Assembly (NCBI GenBank): GCA_963716565.1
Contig: OY970318.1
Location: forward strand, 128,830-192,829
From: an uncultured Candidatus Saccharibacteria bacterium
Lineage (GTDB): Bacteria > Patescibacteriota > Saccharimonadia > Saccharimonadales > CAIOMD01
Reading direction: 5' to 3'
DNA: 64,000 nt
A program made the position numbers and the translations under genes. The notes below the pieces were generated by a model. It worked only from the letters and a program-made list of their open reading frames with translations, had not been told where the DNA came from and searched no databases. Shown piece by piece: positions 104 through 30,691 of this stretch. Positions within the stretch are counted from its first letter, which is position 1, and each line of letters begins with the position of its first letter.

Positions 104-1192
104 ATGTCGACCACGGCAATTTTGGCAATTATAGCAGTACTAGTAGTTTTAATTGGTTTTGCCTTGTATGTGATTTACCAAAAAATCGGCGGGCTAAAAA
201 ACGACACCGCCGCCGGCCTAATTAAACAAGACATGACTAATCTAAGCGAGAACATCGAAAAGCTCAAAGATAGCCTAAACACCTCTGTTAACGAACGGCT
301 AGATAAAAGCCAAACTTTAATGCGTGATTCCATTCAAAAACAGTTTGGCGAAAGCGCTAAATTGATTACCGAGGTCACACAGCGTTTAGCCAAATTAGAC
401 GAAACCAATCGCCGAGTGGTAGATGTTGCCGACGAACTTAAAACCTTGCAAAACGTACTGCAAAACCCCAAACAAAGGGGCGTTCTGGGTGAATATTACT
501 TACAAACCGTTTTAGAAAACGTTTTACCGCCAGAGAGGTTCCAATTGCAATATCGCTTTAAAGACGGCGAAACTGTAGATGCTGTAATCTTTTTAGATAA
601 AAATAAAATGCTGCCGGTAGATTCCAAATTCAGCCTAGAAAATTACAATCGTTTAGTAGAAGAAAAAGATAAAGCCACTCGCGAAAAGTTGGTTGCGGCC
701 TTTAAGGCCGATTTAAAAAACCGCATAGACGAAACTTCCAAATACATCCGCCCAGCTGAGGGCACTATGGATTTTGCTTTTATGTTTATACCTAGCGAAG
801 CAATTTATTACGACCTACTTATTAACAAAGTTGGCGTTACCAGTACCAGCGCGCGCGATCTAATTGAATACGCTTTTAGGGATAAAAAGGTGATAATTGT
901 GAGCCCAACCAGCTTTATGGCCTATTTGCAAACAGTCTTGCAAGGCTTGCGTGGTTTACAAATAGAAGAACAGGCCAAAGAAATCCAAATACGCGTTGGC
1001 CAGCTGGGTGAGCACTTAAAAAGCTACGATTCTTACATGCAAAAATTAGGGATGAGTTTAGGCACAACAGTTAACCACTTTAATACTGCTCACAAAGAAC
1101 TCAAAAAAGTCGATAAAGACGTGGTCAAAATTGCTGGTAGTACTCCGGCTATAGAACCATTGCTGATCGATAAACCGCAAGCCGACGATTAG
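104..1192 (+). CDS. rmuC: DNA recombination protein RmuC
   Basis: 362-aa ORF with an N-terminal TM helix, a long coiled coil and a C-terminal RmuC-type region (DFAFMFIPSEAIYYDLL, VIIVSPTSFMAYLQTV). Confidence 0.85.
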   Translation: MSTTAILAIIAVLVVLIGFALYVIYQKIGGLKNDTAAGLIKQDMTNLSENIEKLKDSLNTSVNERLDKSQTLMRDSIQKQFGESAKLITEVTQRLAKLDETNRRVVDVADELKTLQNVLQNPKQRGVLGEYYLQTVLENVLPPERFQLQYRFKDGETVDAVIFLDKNKMLPVDSKFSLENYNRLVEEKDKATREKLVAAFKADLKNRIDETSKYIRPAEGTMDFAFMFIPSEAIYYDLLINKVGVTSTSARDLIEYAFRDKKVIIVSPTSFMAYLQTVLQGLRGLQIEEQAKEIQIRVGQLGEHLKSYDSYMQKLGMSLGTTVNHFNTAHKELKKVDKDVVKIAGSTPAIEPLLIDKPQADD

Positions 1193-1258
1193 CTTTACAT
1201 AAGTAGCATAATATGTTAGAATAGTTCTTGTTGGCAATCTTCCAAAGAGGGGTGTGCA

Positions 1259-1609
1259 ATGAGCAAGTTTTCTACTATTGTCGTCGTGCTTGTCGTGCTT
1301 TTGATCCTGGCGCTTATCATCGTGCCAATCGTCAAGGCGACTCACAGGGCAGATGTCGTGATTACGATCGACAACCTGCAGCCAGTTGCTGAGGGCGATG
1401 ACGGCAACTACCTCATCTGGGCAACGCGCGAAGACGGCTCGCAAGAGGTGTTTGAGTGCACAGATAGCCTGTACTTGGGTAAGTTCAACTCTAGTGATGT
1501 CTACGGGCAGCTAGAAGTTGGCAGTACCTACAAGGTACAGGTAGCAGGTTTCCGTTGGCCGTTCAGGTCTTGGTACCGCAATATCATCAAGATCTACTCT
1601 GAAGAGTAA
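1259..1609 (+). CDS. hypothetical membrane-anchored protein (G/C-rich orphan)
   Basis: 116-aa ORF with an SD (agagggg) 6 nt upstream, an N-terminal TM helix and G/C-ending codons unlike its neighbours. A hairpin plus T-run follows at 1644-1669. Confidence 0.55.
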   Translation: MSKFSTIVVVLVVLLILALIIVPIVKATHRADVVITIDNLQPVAEGDDGNYLIWATREDGSQEVFECTDSLYLGKFNSSDVYGQLEVGSTYKVQVAGFRWPFRSWYRNIIKIYSEE

Positions 1610-1704
1610 CCGACAAAAGTCCATTCAATTTGAGTGGCTCGCCGACCGAGAACGGTCATTTTTCTTTTTACATGGTATTATTTATTTGAAGACAGGAGGG
1701 TGAT

Positions 1705-1923
1705 ATGAAGGAAAAAGTTAAGAGAGAGATGAAAATGGACATTAATTGTTGCACTGGCAAGCACAAAGATAAGGCTAGCTGTGGCGGAGCCTACTTTTTA
1801 GGCTTTTTAGGCGCCGTTATCTATTTTGTGCAGCAAATCGATGGTTTTTGGCCTGGTGTTTTAGCTTTTCTAAAAGCTATTGTTTGGCCAGTTTTTGTGG
1901 TTTACCACCTGTTAGGCCTCTAG
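1705..1923 (+). CDS. small membrane protein, hypothetical
   Basis: 72-aa ORF with a strong SD (aggaggg), a Cys-rich N-terminus and two hydrophobic helices. Confidence 0.5.
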   Translation: MKEKVKREMKMDINCCTGKHKDKASCGGAYFLGFLGAVIYFVQQIDGFWPGVLAFLKAIVWPVFVVYHLLGL

Positions 1924-2061
1924 CTTAACCAAATATCCAATATTTCTATACTCGGCTAAAATGCTCGAGTGCTATTGAATATTACCTACAAATATGATAT
2001 TATATGTGTGATACTGCCATCGTAACAAATAGCTCGATGAGCTAGGACGCAAGGAGTGGTA

Positions 2062-2367
2062 ATGGTGGCGTATGGAGATTTGCAGACCCAAATAGGGAAC
2101 TGCATCAAGGAGCACCGGTTCGCTGACTTGTGGGATATTTGTGCAAAGCACAGTATCTCGCAGGAAGAGGTCCGGGCTGCGGTTATAGCCTTGGAGGGCA
2201 ACCTGGATGCTGTGGCGTACTACGTCACAAAGAGGGCGCAAGACCAATGTAGCGAAAAGGCCGCCTTAGGGCTGGCCAGGGTCGAGCTCGAAAGCATCAA
2301 AGCCCGTTCGGGCAAAGACCGCCAAGACAAGGGCGACGCGGATCTTCTGATGACGCTCTTGGGCTGA
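2062..2367 (+). CDS. hypothetical protein (G/C-rich orphan)
   Basis: The ORF track gives 2056-2367. ATG 2062 sits 6 nt after SD aaggag. The promoter is TTGAAT-17-TATTAT at about 1974-2002. The ORF is followed by three abutting hairpins at 2398-2471. Confidence 0.5.
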   Translation: MVAYGDLQTQIGNCIKEHRFADLWDICAKHSISQEEVRAAVIALEGNLDAVAYYVTKRAQDQCSEKAALGLARVELESIKARSGKDRQDKGDADLLMTLLG

Positions 2368-2504
2368 CCCAAATGTTCTTGGATCGGCAAGCGTTTGCTG
2401 GGGAGTACATAAACCCCAGAGGCCAACTGTATAAGTTGGCCGCAGTTGCGGCGGGCGAGTGGGCTCGCCGCTATTTAATTTGTTTAAATTTAGTCTACAC
2501 ATAA

Positions 2505-2533
2505 TAGACAATAAGCATATTATCTGGTATAAT
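2505..2533 (+). promoter_or_regulatory. sigma70-type promoter with extended -10 (TAGACA-17-TGgTATAAT)
   Basis: The hexamers and 17-nt spacer were read directly. SD taggagg and GTG 2583 lie downstream. Confidence 0.55.
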
Positions 2534-2582
2534 ATACCTAATACACGTATTCGCCCTGGCAACTACACATTAGGAGGAAACA

Positions 2583-3023
2583 GTGGAGGAATCGTTGTAT
2601 AGCAAGTTGGTGGACGTAGTTCACGATGCTTTTGGGAAACAGCCACTACGTTCAACGGAGTGGCTACGGTTTCTTCAGCAGCATGGTGCGGGCATGTCGG
2701 ACTACTTCAACGCCTACTCGGTGTTAGAAGGTGCCGATGAGATTGCGCTCTACTTGGTGCTAATAGGTGCTGGCTGTTCTAGCGGCGCGGCTCTGGCCGT
2801 TGCACTGGATACTCACCTGTACGCCAAGCTGTACGCTGGCCTGGACGACAACGCCGCTCGGCGGGATAAGAAGTCCGCTAAGGCTTTCGAGCGATCGACA
2901 AGGGTGATCCTGTACGATGCCTTGGCAGCCAACAAGCGTGGCGAGTACGCCAAGCTGTCGGTGCAAGAGCGCCGTCAGTTTGTCACCGAGGTCCTGGCCG
3001 ACTGGGTATCTTCTCGCCAGTAA
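2583..3023 (+). CDS. hypothetical protein (G/C-rich orphan)
   Basis: 146-aa ORF with a GTG start after SD aggagg and strongly G/C-ending codons. No family was recognised. Confidence 0.55.
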   Translation: MEESLYSKLVDVVHDAFGKQPLRSTEWLRFLQQHGAGMSDYFNAYSVLEGADEIALYLVLIGAGCSSGAALAVALDTHLYAKLYAGLDDNAARRDKKSAKAFERSTRVILYDALAANKRGEYAKLSVQERRQFVTEVLADWVSSRQ

Positions 3024-3098
3024 AGGCATCAAGAAGTGCCCGATGCCCAATCTTGCATCACAGACATTTTGCCGGTTTAAGTCTTTAAAAAAACCGGT

Positions 3099-3150
3099 GT
3101 AGTCGTAGATTGTTTTATCTGCCTGACGAGCTCAAAAAGAGCGAAACTAC
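3099..3150 (+). ncRNA. hammerhead ribozyme, type III topology (cleavage predicted after C3104)
   Basis: Reads GUAGUC|GUAGAU-UGUUUU-AUCUGC-CUGACGA-GCUC-AAAAA-GAGC-GAA-ACUAC. The full core is present: CUGANGA, GAA, the A15.1-U16.1 pair and a GUC cleavage triplet. Stems I, II and III have 6, 4 and 5 bp. Confidence 0.85.
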
Positions 3151-3915
3151 CTACTTATGCGTCAAAATAAAGTTAACGGTATCAGAGTATTCTGTTTTTG
3201 CTTTAATTGGCTTTAGCGGCTTTTGGGCCTCTAAGCTAAATGTTAGGGCTGAATTTAAAGAATCTTGCTCGCTGTGTCTTTCTAGCCCCTTTAGCTCATC
3301 AATATTACTTTGTTTTTCTTTATAGCGTTTGATATTGTCAAAGCCCAGCGCTTTTACGGTTTCATCTAAGGCTTCAAAATCCCATAGGTATTTGTGGCCA
3401 AAACCAATGAAGCTGGTGTTTAAAAACTCCGAGCCTAACATTTTATGGCGTTTTTTGTAGATTGGCTTTTTTATATCCGGAACAATTCGCTGCTGGAGTT
3501 TTAAGAAACTTTCCAACACCCTTTTATCTTTATTCACATAGGCTTTACAAATTGCCTCTAAGTCTGGCATAGATATCCGTATTATGCCACCGGGCTTTAA
3601 TACCCTGTATATTTCGTGTAAGTGTTTTACGGTTTGTTCGTAGCTTAGGTGCTCTAAAAAATGTTCCGAAAAAGCGTAATCAATAGAGCTATTTTTAAAT
3701 GGCAACTTTTTTAGGGCGTTAAAATAAACATCACCAGTCCAGATATCTGCTGTTAGCCACCCCGGCTGCTTAACTGGCAGTTCGCCAGGGGCTAAGTGGA
3801 GTTTTCTGACAGCATTGCTGTTTAAATACTCTCTAATTTTAAAATATCTAACCAGATGCCCCTTTTTTAGTTGGTGCTTTATTCTGTTTGATCTATGTAG
3901 CCATTGCCCGGTCAT
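3151..3915 (-). CDS. class I SAM-dependent methyltransferase
   Basis: 254-aa ORF with a Methyltransf_11/23-like motif (LKPGGIIRISMPDLE) and the surrounding Rossmann pattern. Confidence 0.65.
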   Translation of the reverse strand: MTGQWLHRSNRIKHQLKKGHLVRYFKIREYLNSNAVRKLHLAPGELPVKQPGWLTADIWTGDVYFNALKKLPFKNSSIDYAFSEHFLEHLSYEQTVKHLHEIYRVLKPGGIIRISMPDLEAICKAYVNKDKRVLESFLKLQQRIVPDIKKPIYKKRHKMLGSEFLNTSFIGFGHKYLWDFEALDETVKALGFDNIKRYKEKQSNIDELKGLERHSEQDSLNSALTFSLEAQKPLKPIKAKTEYSDTVNFILTHK

Positions 3916-9591: not shown

Positions 9592-9593
9592 CG

Positions 9594-9622
9594 TTGTAAT
9601 TTACGCAAAATAAGTTTATAAT
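9594..9622 (+). promoter_or_regulatory. sigma70-type promoter (TTGTAA-17-TATAAT)
   Basis: Perfect -10 and 17-nt spacer, 3 nt after the pheT stop. It would drive the two small ORFs and possibly the tRNA cluster. Confidence 0.6.
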
Positions 9623-9729
9623 AGCCGTTCTGGAATTGCCCCCAAACAGCACGACTGTATTGTGTGAGGCAGGTCCTTTCACAATCAGGTGTTGTTGATT
9701 AGAAACCTACGAGGCCTGGAGGCCATAAT

Positions 9730-9897
9730 ATGTTCGAGGCTGTGCTTGCGTGTGTGATCTTGTTGGTGCAAGTAGTCGTACTGGTATACGTAGCTGTTCT
9801 TATGATCAGCTCGTCTAAGTTGCATTGTAGAATGATGCAGCGACCTGAGCAGTTTAGCCAAGATGGTGGACTATCAGAACCCAAAAGGAAGTGGTGA
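9730..9897 (+). CDS. small hydrophobic protein, 55 aa (below the ORF-track cutoff)
   Basis: My translation is MFEAVLACVILLVQVVVLVYVAVLMISSSKLHCRMMQRPEQFSQDGGLSEPKRKW. SD ggagg lies 9 nt upstream. One TM helix and a charged tail. Confidence 0.4.
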   Translation: MFEAVLACVILLVQVVVLVYVAVLMISSSKLHCRMMQRPEQFSQDGGLSEPKRKW

Positions 9898-9900
9898 GTG

Positions 9901-10050
9901 ATGAAACGGCAGCCAACTTGTCAGCACAAAGCCCAAGAGCCAGTGTATTCGCGCTTGTGGCGAAAACGCAAGATCGTTAGGTACCGATGTATCAATTGTG
10001 GCCAGAAGGTACGTGTTCGTAAGATCAGGCGCTATCGCTGCCAGACATAA
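9901..10050 (+). CDS. small basic Cys-containing (zinc-ribbon-like) protein, 49 aa
   Basis: My translation is MKRQPTCQHKAQEPVYSRLWRKRKIVRYRCINCGQKVRVRKIRRYRCQT. It starts 3 nt after the previous stop, preceded by SD aaggaag. It has a CxH...CxxC...C pattern. Confidence 0.4.
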   Translation: MKRQPTCQHKAQEPVYSRLWRKRKIVRYRCINCGQKVRVRKIRRYRCQT

Positions 10051-10059
10051 TTGGCAAGG

Positions 10060-10133
10060 GGCCGTATAGCTCAGTGGCAGAGCGGTCGGGGTAAGACTCG
10101 ATGTCGTCAGCGGTTCGAGCCCGCTTACGGCCA
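10060..10133 (+). tRNA. tRNA-like gene with irregular anticodon arm (identity undetermined)
   Basis: The acceptor (GGCCGUA/UACGGCC), D arm (GCUC-AGUGGCA-GAGC) and T arm (AGCGG-UUCGAGC-CCGCU) are canonical. The anticodon arm folds only as 6 bp with a 6-nt loop (GUAAGA), or as 5 bp with an 8-nt loop (GGUAAGAC). Confidence 0.5.
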
Positions 10134-10159
10134 CCTATGTGGCGGTTGTTTGTTTCGAA

Positions 10160-10232
10160 TGGCGCGTAGCTCAGCCCGGGAGAGCACCCCCTTACAGGGG
10201 GGAGGTCGATGGTTCAAACCCATCCGTGCCCA
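10160..10232 (+). tRNA. tRNA-Val(UAC)-like, with a register anomaly in the anticodon stem
   Basis: The D and T arms are canonical. The sequence GAGC-A-CCCCC-UUACA-GGGGGG-AGGUC resembles tRNA-Val (loop CUUACAG), but has 5 C against 6 G and a U1:C72 mismatch. Confidence 0.6.
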
Positions 10233-10244
10233 TTTTGTAACGTG

Positions 10245-10341
10245 GTGTCTGAAGCTCAGTATTGGCAGCGAGCAACCCAATCATATCCAATTAAAGGAGT
10301 GGAGGGGAAGGAGTTTGCGGGTTCAAGTCCCGCCAGACACA
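10245..10341 (+). tRNA. tRNA-like element or disrupted tRNA (97 nt) lacking a foldable anticodon arm
   Basis: Perfect 7-bp acceptor (GUGUCUG/CAGACAC), a D stem GCUC/GAGC and a T arm GCGGG-UUCAAGU-CCCGC. The 43-nt centre reads ACCCA-AUCAUAU followed by a purine-rich UAAAGGAGUGGAGGGGAAGGAGUUU, and I found no 5-bp stem with a 7-nt loop in it. Confidence 0.35.
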
Positions 10342-10548
10342 CTTTGGTGTTGGTTGTCAGATAAGGTTGAACCAATCTGGCGCCAAACACACCAGCACCA
10401 ACTCGTGGCAGTGACTTCACTAGCCAGCGCGTACTTCCAAGGTACGTAGGCGTTCCTAGCGCCGACCTCAAAGAGGGGGTTGCGCACACAGCGAATCCTA
10501 CCATTCCTATCGTTCGCAACCTTAGCTTACTAGTGATCACTGCCCCCG

Positions 10549-10621
10549 CTTCCTGTAGCTCAGTTGGCAGAGCGCCGCCTTTCTACGGCGGAAGTCGCTG
10601 GTTCGAGTCCAGCCAGGGAGA
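10549..10621 (+). tRNA. tRNA-Arg (anticodon UCU)
   Basis: Fully canonical cloverleaf: acceptor CUUCCUG/CAGGGAG, anticodon arm CCGCC-UUUCUAC-GGCGG, variable loop AAGUC, T arm GCUGG-UUCGAGU-CCAGC. Confidence 0.9.
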
Positions 10622-10912
10622 CCTCGGCGCGTGGGAGACCCCTTTCCTCCGAACAACACGTGTCGAATGCTGCTATGGGTGGCCAGCCCAATAGCAGCGG
10701 CTTCTTCAAGTCCGAGGTGGGCGCTGTTCTGATCTTTGTCCACGGTACAATGTGACAATCCAGACAGCGCCCCTTTGGGCTCAATCATACAACACCTGAT
10801 CTTTACCCTAAATCACGAACTTCGCGGTTTGAGGCAAAGAATCAATTTTTACTACATAAAATTATTTGCATAAATAAAAACATTGCTATAATTAGGTCCG
10901 AGAGAGGGATTT

Positions 10913-17297: not shown

Positions 17298-17326
17298 TTG
17301 CTTGCGTTTCTTGTAGTTGTTAAATA
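17298..17326 (+). promoter_or_regulatory. promoter TTGCTT-17-TAAATA, 11 nt before ATG 17338 (near-leaderless)
   Basis: Hexamers read directly. It contains the 16-mer GCTATTGCTTGCGTTT, which recurs at 23880-23895 in front of another orphan gene. Confidence 0.5.
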
Positions 17327-17337
17327 TATTTCCTTGC

Positions 17338-18468
17338 ATGGGAATAGAACAAGCACACTGGTTTCGGAGTGAAAGGTGTAATTTGGATAGATGCGCCTAC
17401 TGCTTTGGGCCGGTTGCTACTCGCGAGGTTGTTTGTAAAGAATCCGATGTTGATATTGCAAAAGAACTGGTAAGAAATAAAGTTAGAATGGTCGTTTTGG
17501 GCGGCGGAGAGCCGACCCTAGCGCGCAACCAGCTAGAAGTATTAGAAATATTAAAACAGGGTGGGATTTATACTAGCGTTCATACCAATGGGCTAACTTT
17601 AACCGAGAAGAAGCTGGATGCCTGGATGGGGCTGGTAGATGAGATCGCTTTGCCAATAGACTCTGCGGATAGGCAGACCCAATCTATTCTTCGGCCGGCG
17701 CCTTTCTTGAAGGTCTACGATAACTTGGGTAATTTGTCAGAACAGATTAACGAGAGAGGAATAAATTTAGGCTGGCATACCGTATTCACGGATCTGAATG
17801 CGCAGGGCATCCCAGCGTTGCATGATAAACTGTGCCAGCATGATTTTAAGTTCTGGCGAATTTATGAATACAACGAGGATCTGGCATTAAGGGGTTGGCT
17901 AGATCACTCTGGCACAACAGGCGAAGGAGTTCATCAGAGCTACAGCCTGGCCGAGTCATTAAGCAACCCTGGAACACCCGAACTTGGGCAAACCGACTGC
18001 TTACTGGCCGATTTTTTGCGGGCAGAAGAGGCTATGCAGCGGCTGGGAGACGATAGGGTATGTTTTGTAGCTCGTAAGAATGAGCAATCCGCCCCGTATT
18101 TCTTTATTCGTCCTGGTGGTGATGTCCATTATTACGATTGGTGCTCAACCAACCAACGTCGACGACTAGGTAACATGCTTAAAGCCAGCTTGCCGACTAT
18201 TCTATCCAAAATGGATGATTTATACCCCGAGTTTTCTCCAACTAGCGAAGATAGGAGTAAATATACAGAAGATTGGCTGGAGGCAACAGCCGATATGCCG
18301 GTTTGGGCTAGAATGTGGGACGGAATAGGCTTTATAGAAGAAGAGCTTGATGAAATTACCGACGAAAAGGTCGCTCGCGAAGTTATAAGGTTGGCAAACT
18401 TGTGGGCAAAAAGAAATGGCTGTACGGATGTCGACTTAAGGTTGGAAGATTATTTTGTATTAGATTAA
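17338..18468 (+). CDS. radical SAM domain protein with atypical Cx4Cx2C cluster motif and an uncharacterised C-terminal half
   Basis: Contains RCNLDRCAYCFGP and GGGEPTL (GGE SAM-binding motif). The ORF-track start at 17317 lies inside the promoter, so ATG 17338 is preferred. Confidence 0.65.
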   Translation: MGIEQAHWFRSERCNLDRCAYCFGPVATREVVCKESDVDIAKELVRNKVRMVVLGGGEPTLARNQLEVLEILKQGGIYTSVHTNGLTLTEKKLDAWMGLVDEIALPIDSADRQTQSILRPAPFLKVYDNLGNLSEQINERGINLGWHTVFTDLNAQGIPALHDKLCQHDFKFWRIYEYNEDLALRGWLDHSGTTGEGVHQSYSLAESLSNPGTPELGQTDCLLADFLRAEEAMQRLGDDRVCFVARKNEQSAPYFFIRPGGDVHYYDWCSTNQRRRLGNMLKASLPTILSKMDDLYPEFSPTSEDRSKYTEDWLEATADMPVWARMWDGIGFIEEELDEITDEKVAREVIRLANLWAKRNGCTDVDLRLEDYFVLD

Positions 18469-18547
18469 CTAGCAACAAGCTCTAGGGATCTTGTTTAGTG
18501 AAAAAGTCTTCACTGACTTGGGTTAACTCCAAGCCTAGTATGGGGGC

Positions 18548-19285
18548 ATGAAAACATTTACAAAATTCGATTTACCAACCCAACATCTAGAAGGTATAGG
18601 CGAACCCTACCTTCCACCCAAAGCCCGCGACGAGCTAGAAATTGCCCGCCGTACAGGCCGGGCGCCAGGCGTACTAATGGCCGAGATGCAGCTAAGGGGC
18701 ATCCGTATTGCCGAGGGCATTTTAGAATACATCTTAAACGAAGAAGACATTCTATTTGCTACTAAAACCTTAGGTGCGGCCGCTTTGAATACTGCTTGGT
18801 ATAACATTGGTCGCGGAGCCAAAGATGTGATGAGCCGCCAGCTAACACTGCCGATCTACAGCGAATATGGGCCGGATGCAAACCAGGCTTTTGTTATTGG
18901 CGAGGCCATAGGTGAAATGAGTGAGGCCGAAGTGGCCGCCACTCAAATGGTTAAAGAAGGCCGCGAAAAAGGTGAGCTATATGACGTACGTAAGAAGGCA
19001 ATAGGCGTTAAGCTGGGCGACTCGGCCCTAACTTTAGCCAGCGTGCCGTCTTGCGCCGAAATCATTGCCGTGAGTGACAAACCGGCCGTACAGCAATCAA
19101 TTGCCCGCCGCAGCGCTTCAGAGCTTTTAGAAAATTCACGCCTGCTCTACAGGCAAATGAACGATACCAATCCAACTCTGGCCCAATTGGCAGACCAAGA
19201 TAGTCCACTATCGGTTTACTGGCGCAAACAGGCCAACAATTTAGCCTATGATGCTCTAGAAATGGCCAAAGAATTTAAAGTTTAA
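18548..19285 (+). CDS. hypothetical protein
   Basis: 245-aa ORF 79 nt downstream of the radical SAM gene. No recognisable motif. Confidence 0.5.
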   Translation: MKTFTKFDLPTQHLEGIGEPYLPPKARDELEIARRTGRAPGVLMAEMQLRGIRIAEGILEYILNEEDILFATKTLGAAALNTAWYNIGRGAKDVMSRQLTLPIYSEYGPDANQAFVIGEAIGEMSEAEVAATQMVKEGREKGELYDVRKKAIGVKLGDSALTLASVPSCAEIIAVSDKPAVQQSIARRSASELLENSRLLYRQMNDTNPTLAQLADQDSPLSVYWRKQANNLAYDALEMAKEFKV

Positions 19286-19943
19286 AAGTCTTGTCTATAA
19301 AGAAGGGCTTACCAGTTTGGGAATACTTTAGTATTTCTTGTGCGGTGGGCAATAGCTGGTCTTTGATGCCACTTAAATCGGTAGCCCAAAAATATTCGCC
19401 CTTTTGGTTGGTAGCTTTCAACTCTCCGTTTAAGTCTTGGGTTGCTAGGGCTGTGAAATGTGTGAAACTTTCTAGTTCTTGGCCCTTAAACACCTTAAAA
19501 TAGCCTTCGCCGGCATATGTGAAAGTTGCTGTTAAGCCAGTAGTTTCACGCAATTCATCCTGGGCAGTTTCAATAATTTCTTTATTAGCTATCGGATTAA
19601 CATGTGGCAAACCAGCCTCATTTATTAGCGGATGGGTATGGCGTTTAAATAGCAACCAAGCCTTATCTTCTGGGCGCTGAACAAGCAAAAAGACAACCGA
19701 ATGAGCTCTATCTAAAGCTAAAAACTGCTTGTTGGCTACGCCAACACCGATGCGCCGACCTTTAGCGGTCAAACTATAAAGCCCATCATTGTTCTTTTGC
19801 GCTAAGCCATCCCGAACGACTAGTTTTAGGTGGTAGTCAAATAGCTTATTGTCTAGCTCATCTGGCTGAAGTTCGCTAAATCGCATAGCTTCGACAAAAG
19901 CTAACTTATAAATAATGGCTTGTTGAATATGATGCTCTAACAT
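19275..19943 (-). CDS. winged-helix plus NUDIX-like domain protein
   Basis: The N-terminus is wHTH-like (IIYKLAFVEAMRFSELQPDELDNKLFDYHLKLVVRDGL). The C-terminus has a degenerate Nudix box (GLPHVNPIANKEIIETAQDELRETTGL). Its 3' end overlaps that of the 18548 gene by 11 nt. Confidence 0.55.
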   Translation of the reverse strand: MLEHHIQQAIIYKLAFVEAMRFSELQPDELDNKLFDYHLKLVVRDGLAQKNNDGLYSLTAKGRRIGVGVANKQFLALDRAHSVVFLLVQRPEDKAWLLFKRHTHPLINEAGLPHVNPIANKEIIETAQDELRETTGLTATFTYAGEGYFKVFKGQELESFTHFTALATQDLNGELKATNQKGEYFWATDLSGIKDQLLPTAQEILKYSQTGKPFFIDKTFKL

Positions 19944-20036
19944 AATTTAAGTATAACCCCATTCTGTAGATTCTATCGCCTATCGTCCATTGTCCAACGT
20001 CTGATTATGTGTTAAAATAACAACCGAAGGCAAAGA

Positions 20037-20061
20037 CCCGCCATTTAAGCGGGCTATTTTT
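20037..20061 (+). promoter_or_regulatory. terminator-like hairpin plus U-run abutting the typA start codon (possible leader attenuator)
   Basis: CCCGC-CAUUUAA-GCGGG followed by CUAUUUUU, then ATG at 20062. The candidate promoter is TTGTCC-17-TAAAAT at 19990-20018. No SD is visible. Confidence 0.4.
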
Positions 20062-21885
20062 ATGATAGATACTACCCACATTCGAAACATTGCCATTATT
20101 GCGCACGTAGACCATGGTAAAACTACCATTGTTGATGCGCTTTTAAAGCAAAGCCACACTTTTAGAGCCAACCAGGCCGAAATGCAGGCCAATCTTATTT
20201 TAGACAGTGGCGACCAAGAACGAGAACGTGGCATTACTATTCGCGCCAAGCAAACGGCCATTAACTACAATGGTTACCATATTAATATTATCGATACTCC
20301 CGGCCACGCCGATTTTAGCGGTGAAGTGGAGCGGACTCTAAACATGGCTGATGGCTGTTTGCTGATTGTAGATGCCCAAGAAGGCCCTATGCCACAAACC
20401 AAATTCGTACTAAAAAAAGCTCTGCAAACCGGCCTAAAGCCCATCGTTATCATTAACAAAATAGATAAAAAAGACGCTCGTATTCATAAAGTAGAAGACG
20501 AAATCGCCGATTTATTTTTAGAACTTGCTAGCGACGAAAGCCAGTTGCATTACTCGGTATTTTACGCTGTTGGCCGTCAGGGCAAAGCTTGGGACACTAA
20601 GCCAGACGATATGGATTCTAAGGCTGATATGAGCGTTATTTTTGACGCTGTAATTGCCGAAATCCCTTGCCCCAGCGGCGAGCTAGATAAACCATTCCAA
20701 ATGTTAATTACGGCCCTAGCCTGGGACAGTTTTTTGGGTAAATACGCTATTGGCCGTATTGCTAGGGGCAGTTTAAAAAGTGGCCAACAATTAAAACTTA
20801 TTAAAAAAGACGGGCGAGTAGTTAATACCAAAGCCGATAAGATTTTTATTAATCAAGGTTTAGCCAAAGCCGAAGTTGGCGAAGCCACCACCGGCGACAT
20901 TATATCTGTTACGGGCATAGCCGATGCTCAAATTGGCGAAACCATTGCCGATTATGATAACCCTGAAGCCTTGCCGGTAATTTTGGTAGAAGAGCCAACC
21001 CTAAAGATCACGCTTTTACCCAATAGTTCGCCATTTAAGGGTCAGGAGGGTGAATTCACTACTTCGCGCCAGATAGATAACCGGCTTAAACAAGAACTAG
21101 AAACTAACGTTGGGTTGCGTGTTGAACCGGATGGAGTAGGCTTTTTGGTGAGTGGCCGTGGCGAATTGCACTTAAGCGTGCTAATAGAAGCTATGCGCCG
21201 TGAGGGATTTGAATTCGAAGTTGGTAAGCCACACGTTGTTTTAAAAGAAGTCGATGGTAAAACTTGCGAGCCAGTAGAAGAGCTAACCATAGAAGTGCCA
21301 GACGATTACGTGGGCACTGTTCAGCAACAGCTTGGAGCCCGTAGGGCAGAGTTTATTCGCCAAGATGCTACTGGCACGGGTATTGCTCGCTTAGAATATA
21401 AAATCACTACTCGTTCATTGCTTGGTTTGCGTAACATTTTGCTGACCGCTACAAGAGGCACAGTTAATATGTATAGCTTAATGCTTGGCTACCAGCCAGT
21501 GGGCTCTAATTTAGCTAGCTCGCGCAACGGTGCCCTAATTGCCTGGGAAACCGGTGTTGCCACGGCTTACGCTCTGCAAACGGCCGAACAAAGAGGTATT
21601 TGTTTTATTGCTCCTGGCGTAAAAGTCTACGCCGGTCAAGTAGTTGGCTTAAATAGCCGAGCCGACGATATGGACATTAACGTGGTAAAAGAAAAACACC
21701 TAACTAATATGCGCTCTTCAAGCAGCGATGGTACCGTGCAGCTAACTCCGCCAGTAACGTTTAGCCTAGAGCAATCCCTAGATTTTATAGAAGATGACGA
21801 GTATTTAGAAGTTACGCCTAAATCTTTACGTATTCGTAAAAAGATTTTAGACCCCAACATGCGCAAGCGTGCCCCGAAGCAATAA
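20062..21885 (+). CDS. typA: translational GTPase TypA/BipA
   Basis: G-domain motifs [17 protein letters not shown] and NKID, plus EF-G-like domains and a BipA-type C-terminus. Confidence 0.95.
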
Positions 21886-21955
21886 AAGTATTTAAAAAAT
21901 GCACTTCCTGCCTTGTCGCTAACGGTTTAATGGCTTTTGTGCCATAATAGATTTT

Positions 21956-22477
21956 ATGCTTACACCAAAAACTATTTTGCTAATTATCAATATTATAGGT
22001 GGCATCGCTGTTGTTGGCAGCTATATCTGGGTGCTAACTAAAAGTGGCAAGGGAGCCACAGCTTTTTGGGGTGGTACACCGAAGAATGTAATATCAATCT
22101 ATACGTTATCGATGATTTTATCAGCACTGTCTTATTTTGCCTTTATCTTCTTTACGCTGTTTAAGCTTGATTTATCGGCTGTAAATCTGGCAGTTTTATA
22201 CAGTGCTTTTGTAGGTATATTAGCAATTTCGGCTTTTTGGATGCCATTAACAAATATGTATTTGGCGCATGCTTCCACCTTACTGTGGATCTGCGTAAGA
22301 TTGGTATTAGTTTTCGTTGGATTGGCCTCAATTTTGTTGGCTGGCTTCTTAATAAGCCTACATTCCCAGCAATCAGGAGCCGCTTATTGGGCGGCGCTTG
22401 CTGGCGCTTGCTACTTTGCTTTCCATACGGCAGTATTAGATGCCATATTTTGGCCGGTATTATTTAGGTCTGTTTAG
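21956..22477 (+). CDS. hypothetical polytopic membrane protein
   Basis: 173 aa with about 5 TM helices. No family was recognised. Confidence 0.5.
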   Translation: MLTPKTILLIINIIGGIAVVGSYIWVLTKSGKGATAFWGGTPKNVISIYTLSMILSALSYFAFIFFTLFKLDLSAVNLAVLYSAFVGILAISAFWMPLTNMYLAHASTLLWICVRLVLVFVGLASILLAGFLISLHSQQSGAAYWAALAGACYFAFHTAVLDAIFWPVLFRSV

Positions 22478-22565
22478 TACGCACTCCAAGGGGTAGACAA
22501 AAGGGCTACAATGTGTAATAATAGCTTTGTTCATTGTTGGCAAAAAATGCACCCAAGGGGGTCTC

Positions 22566-22814
22566 GTGAACGACTTAATAGAGGTCAGTCACATCCTGTT
22601 CGCCATAGCTCTGATCGCGCTTGGCCTCGTCGTTTTTCTTAGTTTTGCCTGGCTTGTTGGCAAGTTCATCTCCAAGATATCGGGCGATGAGGAGAATGAC
22701 AAGAGAGAGCGCAGGGTCGCAGCCAAGGTGATCGTCGCCTGTGCGCTAGTGTTTGCGGTGTCTCTTGGCTTGGGCTGGCTACTGTACTACCTAGGTGGTG
22801 GTACGGCAACATAG
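22566..22814 (+). CDS. hypothetical two-TM membrane protein (G/C-rich orphan)
   Basis: The in-frame GTG at 22566 follows SD aaggggg; the ORF track starts at 22527. Codons are G/C-ending. Confidence 0.45.
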   Translation: MNDLIEVSHILFAIALIALGLVVFLSFAWLVGKFISKISGDEENDKRERRVAAKVIVACALVFAVSLGLGWLLYYLGGGTAT

Positions 22815-22873
22815 CTGGCAGTGCCACTGGGCACCACCAAACTTCTGAGCTTTGGGCGACCAATGAACAAAAG

Positions 22874-22936
22874 GGCGGGAGATTGGGTGAATAACTCAAT
22901 CTCCCGCCTGTAGCACACCCCAAAAGGGTGTTTTTT
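22874..22936. terminator. bidirectional terminator pair between convergent genes
   Basis: A 12-bp hairpin GGCGGGAGAUUG/CAAUCUCCCGCC at 22874-22908 is T-rich on the minus-strand side. A hairpin ACACCC/GGGUGU followed by U6 at 22915-22936 serves the plus strand. Confidence 0.75.
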
Positions 22937-22938
22937 AT

Positions 22939-23739
22939 TTAGTCATGCTTTACATAAACTTGGGTTGGGCTAGTACCGGCAAAATGTAACTGGCCATTGC
23001 TAAAGGTAGCACTGCCGGCATTCAATCCGTATGTACCATTCATAGCGTTAACCACACCGCTATTTAAGACTTTACCGGCAATATCTAGCGGGGCATTAAA
23101 GCGCCCGATTTGAACTTGTTCAACTTGCATATTTAAAACGTTATTAACTACCTCGGCAGCAGCTCGTACGTAGATTGGCGGGCTACCTGCTAAACGTTTG
23201 CCCCAGCCTAGGGCTTTATCGATATCGGACTGGCTATAGCCAACTCCGCCTATAAAATTAACAAAGCTAGAGATTTGATCCATTTTAATGTTGCCACTAA
23301 TTTCTACGGTACCATCGCCAAAACGAACTTGGGTATTAGTAATTGGCATTTGCGACCAGCCAACCGAGTTAATGGTGGCGGTAATTTCTTCTTGAGTTAA
23401 GTTAACATCCATATATTTCGGGTTAGCAAAAATTGTCTTTTTAGCAGGATTGATAGCGCTAACTGGTGCGGTGGCGAAGTCTAAAAATTGGCCACCAGTC
23501 TTGGTTTGGTAACTAACGTAATCGGCCTCACTGTAACGTACGCCTAGGTCGCGGGCTTTGGTGGCGCCCATTAGGCTAGATAAACCAGGTATAAAACCCA
23601 GATACCCTAAGACGATCACTGGGGCCACAATAAATACTAAAACTAGAACGCTGACTACCCATGGCCACTTACGTCGTTTTTTGGGTTCTGGCTTGATGTT
23701 GGTCTCTTCCACCTCTGTCGGTTTGCTGTTTTCGTCCAT
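22939..23739 (-). CDS. hypothetical membrane-anchored extracytoplasmic protein
   Basis: 266 aa with a charged N-terminus, one TM helix and a large C-terminal domain. No family was recognised. Confidence 0.55.
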   Translation of the reverse strand: MDENSKPTEVEETNIKPEPKKRRKWPWVVSVLVLVFIVAPVIVLGYLGFIPGLSSLMGATKARDLGVRYSEADYVSYQTKTGGQFLDFATAPVSAINPAKKTIFANPKYMDVNLTQEEITATINSVGWSQMPITNTQVRFGDGTVEISGNIKMDQISSFVNFIGGVGYSQSDIDKALGWGKRLAGSPPIYVRAAAEVVNNVLNMQVEQVQIGRFNAPLDIAGKVLNSGVVNAMNGTYGLNAGSATFSNGQLHFAGTSPTQVYVKHD

Positions 23740-23798
23740 GGCTCCCTCACTGTTATTTAGCTGTATATTAGTATATATCTTTGGTTTAGTTATGAGAA

Positions 23799-23867
23799 TT
23801 CTATGGGCTTAGTAAAGAGTTCGGCGTTGTGCCTAAGCTGACGAGGCCAAAAGGCTTAAAAAACAGA
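23799..23867 (+). repeat. degenerate hammerhead copy, a direct repeat of the 26015-26073 ribozyme
   Basis: Positions 23827-23867 (ttgtgcctaagCTGACGAggccaaaaggctTAAaaaacaga) align with 26031-26071. G12 is changed to U, the nucleotide at the H17 position is G, the 5' strand of stem III has diverged, and loop I carries an insertion. Confidence 0.6.
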
Positions 23868-23923
23868 AAAAACCAAATTGCTATTGCTTGCGTTTTTAAA
23901 TTATTGGCTAATAATACAGCTTA

Positions 23924-24238
23924 ATGGAAACACTCGAACAAGAGAAAACTAACCAGTATCGTCGAGCAAGCGCCTTTTGTATGCTTGGCTGTGACGCTTG
24001 CGATGCAATGCTAGGCAAAGAATGTAAGCCAACACTGAGTCTGGATGGTAGTGGTATTTACTGCCACAGGCAAAGCAAAGAGGTCACATTCACGGCCCTA
24101 GATGCTCATCAACAAGTTTTTGGTAAGCCAGCTAGATTGCTAGAAGAAAAAGCCCAACTTATAAGTAGGATATTCGGCCACCTAGAAATGCCCAAAGAAC
24201 CCGAAGCGCCAAAAGATTCGACAGAGCAAGTTTTATAA
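23924..24238 (+). CDS. hypothetical Cys-rich protein
   Basis: 104 aa containing CMLGCDACDAMLGKEC...YCH. Preceded by the TTGCTT promoter motif at 23884, with an AT-rich -10 about 8-10 nt before the ATG. Confidence 0.5.
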   Translation: METLEQEKTNQYRRASAFCMLGCDACDAMLGKECKPTLSLDGSGIYCHRQSKEVTFTALDAHQQVFGKPARLLEEKAQLISRIFGHLEMPKEPEAPKDSTEQVL

Positions 24239-24309
24239 CAACACTATTTAGTATTTTTATCTCTAAGACGTACATCAATAAAACATTAAAGAGGTTATAA
24301 TGGCCGTAG

Positions 24310-24945
24310 ATGACAGGCCAAACCAAATCAACAATAAAAATCGTAGAAGAAATCTTTAACAGTATTTTGCATGGGCTAGGGGCCATCGCCGGCATTGTTG
24401 GCTTGGTTCTGGGCATAGTTACAATCACTGCCGACTTGTCTTATAAAGTTGGCTTTATCATTTATTGTGCCACTCTAATCTTATTGATGTTAATGTCTTG
24501 CTTGTACCATGCCTTAAAATTCACCAAAGCCACAAAAGTTTTTAGGGCGTTAGATCATAGCAGCATCTTTTTGCTAATAGCCGGCAGTTTTACGCCGTTT
24601 ATTATTCAGCTATATTCTGGCTGGGTGCAAATAGTGTTATTAAGTGTTACTTGGGTGATTGCTACTGCTGGCGTAAGCCTAACCCCAACTGTAATTTTGC
24701 CCAAAGACCTCAAAAAAACTAACGCTATATTTTACATTGCCTTTGGCTGGCTGGCTCTAATCTTTATTCCAAAAATTCATACCTTTTCGGCGACGGTGTT
24801 GTGGTTATTAGTAGCCGGCGGGGCTTTATATACGGTTGGCGTAATTTTATATGCTAGTAAAAAGCCATTTATGCATCTTGGTTGGCACGCATTTGTTATC
24901 GCTGCCGCAACCTTGCACTTCTTTGCCATTATAAAGCTCCCCTAG
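24310..24945 (+). CDS. hemolysin III / PAQR family membrane protein
   Basis: 211 aa, 7 TM helices, with conserved HLGAI, YHAL, DHSSIFLLIAGSFTPF and HAFV motifs of the HlyIII family. Confidence 0.85.
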   Translation: MTGQTKSTIKIVEEIFNSILHGLGAIAGIVGLVLGIVTITADLSYKVGFIIYCATLILLMLMSCLYHALKFTKATKVFRALDHSSIFLLIAGSFTPFIIQLYSGWVQIVLLSVTWVIATAGVSLTPTVILPKDLKKTNAIFYIAFGWLALIFIPKIHTFSATVLWLLVAGGALYTVGVILYASKKPFMHLGWHAFVIAAATLHFFAIIKLP

Positions 24946-24981
24946 CATAGACAGAAACATAATAAAGTGGTAATATATGCG

Positions 24982-25015
24982 CACTTTCGTTGAGATTACT
25001 CCGAAGGTGTTTTTT
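24982..25015 (+). terminator. rho-independent terminator after the hlyIII-family gene (or first hairpin of the downstream leader)
   Basis: CACUUUCG-12 nt-CGAAGGUG hairpin followed by U6. Confidence 0.7.
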
Positions 25016-25146
25016 GACAAGTAGGAAACGCAAAATGAGAGGCAAGGGCTTGGTTGCAAGCTTTTGCTCCTCATTTTGCGCTTCTCATAGGGAGAGGCCA
25101 ATAAGCTAAGGCTTGGGCGCTCGCCCAGTGAGGAGAAGGGGAAAAT

Positions 25147-25689
25147 ATGAATCTGCTATTGGACGTCAAAGGTGAGATGGTGGTTTTCGGCAAAAGCCTA
25201 GGCGACACCTTTCCTGAATGGGTGAAGGACGCCAAGGCGCTGGCCTATACCCAAGGGCATCAGTACGCGATGTTCGTGTATGAGGGCATCATAGTACGGG
25301 CGAGCCTGGGCTCAAGTTCCGAGCTCTTACTGCGCGATGTGCGGCGAGCGCGGTATGGTCATCTTGGTAACGCGGTGGGGCCGAAGTGCTGTGAGCATCT
25401 CACCGACGAGGACCTGCAGGAGGACGAGCTGGCCAGGGCTGCGTACGACGTCAACCATATCTTCACCTTGCTCATGGGCCTCATCAGTGAAGAGGTCCGT
25501 GCGGAATTGGATCGGGAGAACGTCGTGGCGTCCGGTATCAAAGGTGAACGGATCAAGCAGACGACTCGCCTAGTCCTTTCTATGAAGGACTTGGCCCGGC
25601 TCAGCATCCGGCTCGAAAGAGCGCAAGCAGGCGCCCAAGCCCAAGAGGTGGCTAAAGCCGAACCGGTCGCCGAAACGGTGGCGTCTTGA
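25147..25689 (+). CDS. hypothetical protein (G/C-rich orphan)
   Basis: 180 aa with SD gaggag and strongly G/C-ending codons. No family was recognised. Confidence 0.55.
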   Translation: MNLLLDVKGEMVVFGKSLGDTFPEWVKDAKALAYTQGHQYAMFVYEGIIVRASLGSSSELLLRDVRRARYGHLGNAVGPKCCEHLTDEDLQEDELARAAYDVNHIFTLLMGLISEEVRAELDRENVVASGIKGERIKQTTRLVLSMKDLARLSIRLERAQAGAQAQEVAKAEPVAETVAS

Positions 25690-25943
25690 ACGCCAAGCCA
25701 AAGTCGGCGTTGGTAACGGCCGGCTACAACGCGTTCTACGTACGTGCTGGTGTTCGGCTCGAAGACGCTCTGCGTGAAGCGGCGTCTGTGTCGGCCCAAG
25801 TGTGCAATCTGGTGACTGTTGTGTTCAACAATCGACCGCTTGCGATCGATACGACGACTGACGTCGAGAAGCTTCTAATAGCCGAAGGCCTAGACGGCAA
25901 TGCCGTTTCTTCGGACGTTTCTCGACGAAACGCTCACGCCTGA
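25686..25943 (+). CDS. hypothetical protein (G/C-rich orphan)
   Basis: 85 aa. The TTG start overlaps the upstream stop (TTGA), suggesting translational coupling. An 11-bp hairpin follows at about 25965-25994. Confidence 0.45.
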   Translation: MNAKPKSALVTAGYNAFYVRAGVRLEDALREAASVSAQVCNLVTVVFNNRPLAIDTTTDVEKLLIAEGLDGNAVSSDVSRRNAHA

Positions 25944-26014
25944 CCCCTCCCGGTTTTCAAAAGGGCGTAGTGGCCACCAACCACTACGCCCTATGCCGGT
26001 CTCCTACTTGTCAA

Positions 26015-26073
26015 TATCTGTTTACTTAAGTGTGCGCTTAAGCTGACGAGGTCAAAAGGCCGAAAAACAGATA
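26015..26073 (+). ncRNA. hammerhead ribozyme, type III topology (cleavage predicted after A26024)
   Basis: Reads UAUCUGUUUA|CUUAAG-UGUGCG-CUUAAG-CUGACGA-GGUC-AAAA-GGCC-GAA-AAACAGAUA. The full core is present. Stems I, II and III have 6, 4 and 9 bp, and all three covary with the 3099 copy. Confidence 0.85.
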
Positions 26074-29733: not shown

Positions 29734-29842
29734 GCCAAGCGCTACAACAGCTTGCGGGACTCCCTTAAGGTCGGCCAAACTTTTGTTCATTCTTCATAGA
29801 AGAAGTTTGGCAAGTCCTCAGCTTCCATGTTGTAGCTTTGGC
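29734..29842. repeat. long imperfect palindrome (about 109 nt) at the start of an accessory islet
   Basis: Paired blocks are GCUACAACA/UGUUGUAGC (9 bp), GGAC/GUCC, and CCAAACUU/AAGUUUGG (8 bp) around a UCUUC-AUA-GAAGA centre. The sequence is confirmed by the overlapping ORF translation. Confidence 0.6.
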
Positions 29843-29914
29843 CAGTTTATCCAGGCCCAAAAAGATGCCCAGACCCTTTTAATAGCAATATATCAGGCGT
29901 ACAATCCCTATATA

Positions 29915-30652: not shown

Positions 30653-30661
30653 TACGCACTT

Positions 30662-30691
30662 CATCATCTAACCTGCTGGAAGAAAATGTTG
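30662..30691 (+). repeat. 30-nt direct repeat, copy A
   Basis: catcatctaacctgctggaagaaaatgttg matches 31550-31579 (caacatctaaactgctggaagaaaacgttg) at 27 of 30 positions. Confidence 0.7.

Follow-up and report, generated by a model that had tools for sequence, protein, structure and literature searches.

The 64,000-nucleotide (nt) window analysed here (contig OY970318.1, positions 128,830 to 192,829, assembly GCA_963716565.1) comes from an uncultured Candidatus Saccharibacteria bacterium and carries seven GC-rich open reading frames (ORFs), o1 to o7, all on the plus strand and grouped in four islets that make up six transcription units. Islet 1 consists of o1 (1259–1609, 116 amino acids, aa), o2 (2062–2367, 101 aa, with an alternative GTG start at 2056) and o3 (2583–3023, 146 aa), and thus spans 1259–3023. 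Islet 2 is o4 (22566–22814, 82 aa), islet 3 is the pair o5 (25147–25689, 180 aa) and o6 (25686–25943, 85 aa), and islet 4 is o7 (30868–31440, 190 aa). An earlier note on this DNA had taken 25147–25943 for one ORF; the stretch is GC-rich as described, but it contains two ORFs in different frames, the o6 start overlapping the o5 stop codon by 4 nt (TTGA). The note's account of islet 1 holds for o1, o2 and o3, whereas a small cysteine-rich membrane ORF between o1 and o2, oL (1705–1923, plus strand), is native in composition and has a Saccharibacteria homologue in one relative (L009). The common orientation of the islet ORFs, correctly reported there, carries no evidential weight because about 85% of the window genes lie on the plus strand.

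The G+C content at third codon positions (GC3) is 0.66 in o1, 0.70 in o2, 0.66 in o3, 0.63 in o4, 0.70 in o5, 0.60 in o6 and 0.69 in o7, compared with 0.44 in oL and a mean of 0.414 (standard deviation, sd, 0.032; maximum 0.475) in 50 native genes. Contiguous 100-codon chunks of native sequence have a mean of 0.423 (sd 0.049, maximum 0.54), and the islet ORFs stand 3.5–5.6 sd above the native background. The relative synonymous codon usage (RSCU) of the pooled islets (893 codons) shows no correlation with that of the native genes (r = −0.01), while islet 1 and islets 2–4 resemble each other (r = 0.56). In a 100-nt profile, GC peaks at 0.55–0.61 within the ORFs and falls to 0.31–0.38 at the promoters, the whole window having a GC content of 44.2%. 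The contrast between G/C-ending codons in these ORFs and A/T-ending codons in their neighbours, proposed in the earlier note, is therefore borne out by windowed GC, GC3 and codon statistics, and the composition of the seven ORFs is alien to the surrounding genome.

The claim that none of the ORFs belongs to a recognisable family fails for o1, which matches the phage "secreted protein" family phrog_301 (E = 7.7e-22, residues 3–112, PHROG scan). The family is present in 85 phage genomes from diverse hosts, including 17 actinophages, and the best relatives of o1 are a Berkelbacteria protein (46% identity) and proteins of Bacillus phages (43%). The motif KFNSSD...G.R...S.YRNII is invariant in o1 and 19 homologues. 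The predicted model (predicted local distance difference test, pLDDT, 86) places an OB-fold barrel after an N-terminal transmembrane helix, so that o1 appears to be a membrane-anchored, DUF1523-like OB-fold protein; a Foldseek search with this model returned generic OB-folds only. Pfam PF07509 gave no match to o1 itself and is recorded for two of its homologues. One o1 homologue lies on a phage-like contig beside RusA, endonuclease VII and GIY-YIG genes. The homologue from Berkelbacteria is encoded chromosomally (L114, 6001–6378) and adjoins a Fic/Phd toxin-antitoxin pair; its GC3 of 0.79 is the highest in the 12-kb locus, where the other genes range from 0.46 to 0.69, and the o1 family may be a GC-rich import in that lineage too.

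The other six proteins are ORFans. Scans of all seven with Pfam, NCBIfam, PADLOC and PHROG gave the o1–phrog_301 match and no other. Among 5.8 billion proteins, o3 has one homologue besides itself, encoded on a metagenome contig (L081), and o7 has none. An exhaustive HMMER search of 1.84 billion representatives gave a single marginal match to o5 (E = 5e-4), and o2, o4 and o6 have no relatives in IMG/VR. For o3, o5 and o7, neither 50,697 GenBank phage genomes nor sequence searches of the PDB yielded a match. All-versus-all BLASTP found no paralogy among the seven, and an AlphaFold model of o5 from its single sequence (pLDDT 38) offered no usable fold. By sequence comparison, the islet proteins are thus ORFans or, in o1, members of a phage family. 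Both o1 and o4 are clearly membrane proteins, o4 having two transmembrane segments, and o3 contains a hydrophobic core segment. The o3 protein shares 72% aa identity with its L081 orthologue, with a synonymous divergence (dS) of about 0.74 and a ratio of nonsynonymous to synonymous substitution (dN/dS) of 0.24, which at the sequence level indicates purifying selection.

These data bear on the suspicion that the islets are an artefact, either of a chimeric assembly or of GC-rich non-coding DNA that happens to contain spurious ORFs. The assembly is of the metagenome type, and ORFs as short as o4 and o6 could occur by chance at 56% GC. However, independent Logan assemblies reproduce both islet 1, in the order RmuC–o1–oL–o2–o3–methyltransferase–YajQ, and the pair formed by o7 and the adjoining gene g29783 in islet 4, with identical spacing. 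Every islet ORF shows the periodicity GC3 > GC1 > GC2, and the dN/dS of o3 and the invariant family motifs and confident predicted fold of o1 also argue for real genes. An artefact is thus extremely improbable.

Predicted expression signals and hammerhead motifs

All six units are preceded by a sigma-70-like promoter site: o1 (1194–1222, TTTACA-17-TAGAAT), o2 (1975–2003, TTGAAT-17-TATTAT), o3 (2505–2533, TAGACA-17-TATAAT with TGn, an 11/12 match), o4 (22494–22522, TAGACA-17-AATAAT with TGn), o5–o6 (24948–24976, TAGACA-17-TAATAT with TGn) and o7 (30791–30819, TTGACT-17-TAAAGT). Each unit also has a strong Shine-Dalgarno sequence. The earlier proposal that every unit has its own promoter and Shine-Dalgarno sequence is thus supported, the promoters as consensus matches. 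A scan of 1100–3300 found nine promoter-like and eight terminator-like sites, against 2.1 expected for each. The o3, o4 and o5 promoters share the form TAGACA-17-(TGn)-10, and three of the six matches to TAGACA-N17-NANNNT in the window (1.5 expected) are these promoters. No homology was found among the three beyond the TAGACA −35 element, which makes the shared form a weak signature only.

All 3′ regions carry hairpins, with fold z-scores of −2.5 to −5.1 except for the short o1 terminator (z = −1.5). In o1, o2, o4 and o7, the 3′ end has the form of an intrinsic terminator, a hairpin with a T-run. The o1 terminator occupies 1644–1668. After o2, three abutting hairpins (2398–2471, z = −4.0) follow one another, of which the last (2448–2471), with its T-rich tail, constitutes the terminator. 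The o4 structures (22874–22931, z = −5.1) comprise a 15-bp hairpin at 22874–22908 and a terminator at 22915–22931 with a T-run, and the o7 terminator (31476–31512) has an 11-bp stem and a T-run. The hairpins after o3 (3071–3098) and o6 (25962–25992, 12 bp) lack a T-run and were not called as terminators. The earlier statement that a hairpin follows each unit is therefore correct for all six; what it missed is that the two hairpins without a U-tract are followed by hammerheads. At the 5′ side, o5 has a structured leader (25022–25146) with two mutually exclusive folds, a long hairpin (25027–25081) and a three-way junction (25065–25140) that pairs with the Shine-Dalgarno sequence (z = −3.0), and this leader may be a translational switch. 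The junction scored 29.0 bits against RAGATH-10 (Rfam RF03147; E = 0.038 in 10 kb), below the gathering score of 41.2, and was treated as a structured leader only.

The two type III hammerhead motifs, HH1 (3097–3152) and HH2 (26015–26073), follow just the two units whose hairpins lack a U-tract, and both lie on the cassette strand. HH1 directly abuts the o3 hairpin and starts 74 nt past the o3 stop codon, with predicted cleavage at 3104/3105 (GUC|). HH2 starts 72 nt past the o6 stop codon and lies 41 nt upstream of the rpe start codon, with predicted cleavage at 26024/26025 (UUA|). The type III core is C3 U4 G5 A6 N7 G8 A9 ... G12 A13 A14, with an A15.1–U16.1 pair and an H17 that is not G. HH1 contains the whole of it (CUGACGA...GAA, the A–U pair and GUC|), and every core nucleotide is likewise present in HH2 (CUGACGA, GAA, A15.1–U16.1, H17 = A). 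The three stems have 5, 6 and 4 bp in HH1 and 9, 7–8 and 4 bp in HH2, and the pairs closing the core are intact (G–C/G–C/A–U and C–G/G–C/A–U, respectively). Both motifs have the three helices, the loops capping stems I and II, the open stem III and the freedom from core-adjacent mispairs by which Perreault et al. (PMC3088659) accepted hammerheads.

Both three-way junctions reappear in the minimum-energy folds of 137-nt contexts. In the window, HH1 and HH2 are the only matches to a strict descriptor, which had none in 300 composition-preserving shuffles, and the core pattern alone has four matches against 0.26 expected. The Rfam type III model RF00008 scores HH1 at 36.5 bits (E = 2.1e-5 in 4 kb); with HH9, HH2 obtained just 14.1 bits, and the topology was different. 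A further copy at 23805–23870 (plus strand) repeats HH2 in direct orientation, with 30 of 35 nt identical at 23828–23862, and is regarded as a relic because its core departs from the type III pattern (G12 changed to U) and stem III is broken. Two canonical hammerhead motifs are thus present at cassette ends, and their self-cleavage is predicted from the sequence.

The HH1 motif recurs together with o3. The L081 contig, a 1,068-bp JGI metagenome sequence, contains the 3′ part of the o3 orthologue, the same hairpin and HH1. Its DNA is 77% identical to the window up to exactly the 3′ end of HH1, where the yajQ stop codon follows; in the window, a methyltransferase gene (3151–3915, minus strand) that is absent from L081 lies between HH1 and yajQ. 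HH1 is thus conserved together with the o3 cassette, as judged from this alignment, while the downstream DNA is different. Only about the last 24 yajQ codons are present in L081 (393–466, where HH1 abuts the yajQ stop), and they are followed by a different, plus-strand methyltransferase-like ORF; the HH1–yajQ junction is very plastic. Of the 56 positions, 10 differ between the two HH1 copies; six of these are in loops or at N7, none is in the core, and all pairs (100%) are kept. The remaining changes are two wobble-preserving substitutions in stem I and two that form one compensatory change, C–G to U–A, in stem II. Retention of the pairing between these two sequences is consistent with constraint.

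A loose hammerhead scan of the related genomes (1.36 Mb) gave two weak matches only. A generic hammerhead pattern (stem III GUAGU/ACUAC) found 32 loci in IMG/VR and the JGI metagenomes, all unrelated and none a relative of HH1, and the HH2 core was not found in IMG/VR. Permissive Rfam scans detected no other ribozyme class near islets 2 and 4. The unrelated metagenomic type III hammerheads (L094, L104, L105, L111 and others) usually precede a Shine-Dalgarno sequence and an ATG by 10–20 nt; this arrangement resembles that of HH2 and rpe, except that rpe lacks a Shine-Dalgarno sequence. In the literature searched, no report was found that joins hammerheads with Saccharibacteria, and a looser search found none for Patescibacteria or the candidate phyla radiation. 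Earlier work has placed bacterial hammerheads beside small non-conserved genes of phage-related DNA, with transcript processing as their proposed function (PMC3088659, PMC6155905, PMC6765202); their biological role is an open question (PMC6765202).

Probable insertion sites and absence from relatives

The islets lie among conserved bacterial genes. Islet 1 is surrounded by rmuC, the methyltransferase gene, yajQ and a PMT_2 glycosyltransferase gene, and islets 2–4 by typA/bipA, a gene for a haemolysin-III family protein, rpe, both transketolase (tkt) subunit genes, the class II fba and pfkB. For comparison, 80 related loci were collected, with the transketolase N-terminal subunit as query against species-representative genomes; nearly all are titled Saccharibacteria or Saccharimonadales, the best identity of this subunit is 83%, and the species of the window itself is outside the collection. 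No tblastn match to o4, o5, o6 or o7 was found in the 80 loci. In them, rpiB-rpe-tktN-tktC-fba-pfkB forms a compact conserved row; fba and pfkB are adjacent in many, and rpiB and rpe in most. In the window, rpiB and rpe are separated by an 8.8-kb block (17317–26014), and the fba–pfkB gap holds two genes, a low-GC ORFan and o7. ORFs whose GC3 exceeds the local median by more than 0.15 number eight of 1476 in the relatives and seven of about 65 in the window. The comparison with related genomes that the earlier note had advised thus agrees with its proposal for o4–o7, which, as far as sequence searches can tell, are absent from relatives at comparable sites where the flanking genes usually abut.

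The clearest trace of insertion surrounds o7. Direct repeats matching at 28 of 32 nt (30660–30691 and 31548–31579; 0 expected by chance) flank the unit; a 30-nt part of each, the left copy at 30662–30691 and the right at 31550–31579, just upstream of the pfkB promoter, are identical at 27 positions. The segment they bound includes the AT-rich promoter region (30692–30867, GC 0.34), so the o7 promoter probably arrived with the cassette. The earlier description of the promoters as host-type is right about their AT-richness, but they need not be of local origin, as o7 probably shows. The repeat was found neither upstream of pfkB in the 80 relatives, even with five mismatches, nor in IMG/VR. The low-GC neighbour of o7 in the same gap, g29783 (29783–30652), encodes a 289-aa ORFan with a GC content and GC3 of 0.35 each; it has no family and is absent from the 80 relatives. 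As it stands beside the high-GC o7, one hot spot holds foreign genes of opposite compositional bias.

The hammerheads also appear to mark inserted DNA. HH2 and its relic are direct repeats that flank a 2.2-kb block with g23924, the haemolysin-III gene, o5 and o6. In the closest relative (L001), the rpiB–rpe interval holds only a homologue of g22939 and one other ORF, and the g22939 homologue lies directly beside rpe, with a 94-nt gap that has no hammerhead; the hammerheads therefore came in with inserted DNA. No direct repeats of at least 12 nt flank o1, o2, o3, o4 or o5–o6 individually, and no attC-like site was found in any islet. The 8.8-kb block itself contains a radical-SAM gene, typA/bipA, several family-less genes, the haemolysin-III gene and o4–o6.

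Such a rearranged block, together with the paralogy of HH2 and the relic, could suggest that all the islets are left over from a single integrated phage or mobile element with intergenic hammerheads, later broken up by deletions and rearrangements in a highly plastic region. The similar codon usage across islets (r = 0.56), the TAGACA-17-TGn promoter form common to three units, and the fact that hammerheads around short gene blocks are typical of prophages (PMC3088659) point in the same direction. However, the islets are separated over 30 kb by core genes of native composition (pheST, GAPDH, typA, tkt and fba), a native-type ORF (oL) intervenes between o1 and o2, islet 4 is flanked by a repeat pair of its own, and no phage structural or integration gene is left. 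A single ancestral insertion is thus unlikely.

The islet ORFs might also be native genes, lineage-specific or formed de novo, in which selection, for example on mRNA structure or stability, holds the GC-rich codons. Both o3 orthologues have a GC3 of 0.66 despite a dS of about 0.74, in hosts with values of 0.34–0.42, and unusual structure is seen in all 3′ regions and in one 5′ leader; both observations speak for this explanation. Nevertheless, highly expressed and essential native genes all have GC3 values of 0.34–0.48, GC1 is shifted too, which indicates a different mutational background and not synonymous selection only, o1 belongs to a widespread phage family, and the ORFs are absent from the 80 relatives in which the flanking genes abut. 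Native origin is therefore very improbable. Taken with the alien codons, the ORFan or phage-family proteins and the o7 repeats, this absence favours the repeated uptake of small foreign cassettes, as the earlier note had suggested.

Two further features of the window are recorded here. Between pheT and an FKBP gene, 1.3 kb of non-coding DNA with about 52% GC (9592–10912) contains a normal tRNA-Arg(TCT) gene (10549–10623) and three tRNA-like genes with abnormal anticodon arms. Two of these (10060–10135 and 10160–10232) are reported by ARAGORN as "tRNA-???" with two-letter anticodons, the third (10245–10341) has a 37-nt insert in the anticodon region, and all three score only 34–45 bits with the Rfam tRNA model. 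The gene at 37255–39216, adjoining uvrB, encodes 653 aa with ATPase domains of the HerA/DUF87 and TrwB coupling-protein types; the protein may belong to a type IV secretion or DNA-transfer apparatus.

Donor and origin of the islets

Cultivated Saccharibacteria live on Actinobacteria. As the source organism is a Saccharibacterium, the earlier note had named the epibiont's high-GC actinobacterial host or its phages as candidate donor, and the cassettes would then be ameliorating toward 44% GC. The o1 family occurs in nine Microbacterium and eight Mycobacterium phages among its 85 matches. Yet the best o1 relatives are from Berkelbacteria and Bacillus phages, and no homologue in Actinobacteria or actinophages was found for o3, o5 or o7 among the 5.8 billion proteins, 1.84 billion representatives and 50,697 phage genomes. 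The protein searches suggested earlier thus gave a phage family for o1 and no actinobacterial or actinophage relative for these three ORFans.

Composition argues in the same way. From the Lawrence and Ochman codon-position regressions, the pooled islets imply a donor GC of 56.0% by GC1 and 58.9% by GC3, while the native genes, as a control, give 43.9% and 44.2% against a true value of 44.2%. Amelioration from a donor of 65–72% GC would place the GC1 estimate above the GC3 estimate; the opposite is seen, and both estimates are far from that range. A simple two-state model with a dS of about 0.74 does allow an ancestral GC3 of about 0.83 for o3, the pattern of S/W third positions fitting stationarity equally well. 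On balance, the high-GC actinobacterial host is probably not the origin of the islets, and a donor among that host and its phages, as the earlier note had it, is decidedly unlikely.

A donor pool of about 56–59% GC, made up of phages or other mobile DNA of unsampled organisms, is most likely. Relatives in the same order range from 36 to 56% GC, with GC3 up to 0.72, and the RSCU of the islets agrees better with Saccharibacteria loci of 53–56% GC (r = 0.65) than does that of the native genes (r = 0.28). The donors were possibly higher-GC relatives within the candidate phyla radiation.

The o3–HH1 unit occupies the same chromosomal spot in L081 and has kept a GC3 of 0.66 in both copies at a dS of about 0.74, next to adjoining genes with values of 0.34–0.42. 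This retention could reflect selection, amelioration in parallel from a higher starting value, or ongoing exchange with an outside element. In the last case, the cassettes could derive from a still circulating, unsampled extrachromosomal element of Saccharibacteria and further candidate-phyla bacteria with about 57% GC, composed of ribozyme-terminated units in which the hammerhead is itself mobile. If this rather improbable account were true, the hammerhead may mark a site of recombination or processing, the 2.2-kb block between HH2 and its relic could release a circularisable RNA, and continued exchange would block amelioration, thus explaining the GC3 of o3.

Probable moron-like cassettes at intergenic hot spots

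Taken together, the islets are probably horizontally acquired, self-contained, moron-like cassettes drawn from a common or similar pool of about 56–59% GC and inserted at intergenic hot spots. Each cassette would come with one or two small ORFs, preceded by a promoter and a strong Shine-Dalgarno sequence and followed by a structured 3′ end. The o1, o2, o4 and o7 units would terminate at ordinary intrinsic terminators, whereas the o3 and o5–o6 transcripts would read through the hairpin that lacks a U-tract into a type III hammerhead. Cleavage there would leave an mRNA 3′ end shielded by the hairpin and split the foreign message from the RNA downstream. HH1 would thereby cut off transcription antisense to the convergent methyltransferase gene, and HH2 would separate the foreign o5–o6 message from the rpe-tkt-fba operon as a natural insulator or processing site. 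This operon seems to lack a recognisable promoter, and rpiB, which stood upstream of it ancestrally, now lies 8.8 kb away. By analogy, such a role of cleavage agrees with the processing roles proposed, and not proven, for bacterial hammerheads (PMC3088659, PMC6765202).

Several observations weigh against the cassette reading or parts of it. Hammerheads are associated with only two of the four islets. The score of HH1 lies below the RF00008 gathering score of 48.5, which is a curated cut-off and not a property of the RNA; HH2 is left unscored by the Rfam type III model, and its UUA cleavage triplet is uncommon. The promoter and terminator calls are consensus matches only, and it was a crude scan that found no plus-strand promoter-like site in the stretch from the o5 promoter to the rpe start. 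Among the window proteins scanned, none was an integrase, a transposase or a phage structural protein, and no donor sequence was found. The presence or absence of islet 1 is comparable in one relative only, and in that orthologue pair the retained GC3 of o3 fits poorly with a recent arrival drifting to host composition.

Among known systems, the cassettes most resemble phage morons, which are defined by their own promoter, their own terminator and a deviant GC content (PMC3594210). Like the morons described by Hendrix and Juhala (reviewed in PMC3594210), they are independent units between unrelated genes and encode small accessory, often membrane, proteins. The membrane character of o1 and o4 and the hydrophobic segment of o3 are features common among moron-encoded surface or exclusion factors, by analogy with which the islet proteins would be accessory. 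Unlike morons, the cassettes stand amid bacterial housekeeping genes with no surrounding prophage, are GC-richer than the recipient, and in two cases end in a ribozyme. Since their neighbours are rmuC, yajQ, typA, rpe, tkt, fba and pfkB without phage genes, they are moron-like and not morons in the strict sense.

The prophage hammerheads reported by Perreault et al. (2011; PMC3088659) and in reviews (PMC6155905, PMC6765202) likewise have canonical cores beside small non-constant ORFs, occur as two copies flanking a short gene block, one of which is decayed here, and have a proposed processing role. In contrast, the host phylum differs, the vicinity has neither an integrase nor phage genes, a lone hammerhead stands 3′ of a hairpin without a U-tract, and one copy precedes a core metabolic operon. 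Integron cassettes and clusters of attC sites lacking integron-integrases (CALINs) share the small co-oriented ORFans with a structured element after each, but the units here have promoter-like sites of their own, are dispersed, and lack both attC core sites and an integrase in the window. Integron gene cassettes were rejected as an identity because no RYYYAAC ... GTTRRRY (R″/R′) pair is present in any islet and the units have promoter-like sites, whereas the ORF of an integron cassette is promoterless.

Acquired DNA is usually AT-richer than its host. The islets resemble genomic islands acquired by horizontal gene transfer, as in the amelioration model of Lawrence and Ochman, in their deviant GC1, GC3 and codon usage, patchy distribution and location at variable hot spots. 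They differ from typical islands in being miniature (0.4–1.9 kb, single genes) and GC-richer than the host, and in showing no amelioration in the one orthologue pair. The placement of HH2 recalls synthetic RiboJ-type insulators, which combine a hammerhead with a hairpin, in that it would uncouple the upstream unit from rpe; the analogy is functional only.

The locus is thus a new instance, in a candidate-phyla bacterium, of known moron-like cassettes and of known small ORFs beside hammerheads. What it adds is the link between the two, which places the cassettes in a known, functionally unsolved class. It also offers a natural test case, in which HH2 stands between a foreign cassette and an essential pentose-phosphate operon seemingly without a promoter of its own, HH1 at a cassette 3′ end faces a convergent gene, and terminator-ended cassettes in the same genome serve as internal controls. 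For work on such epibionts, the host should not be named as donor from GC content alone. For the organism itself, the finding means that a strongly reduced epibiont genome would still acquire and retain single-gene ORFan cassettes inside core operons.

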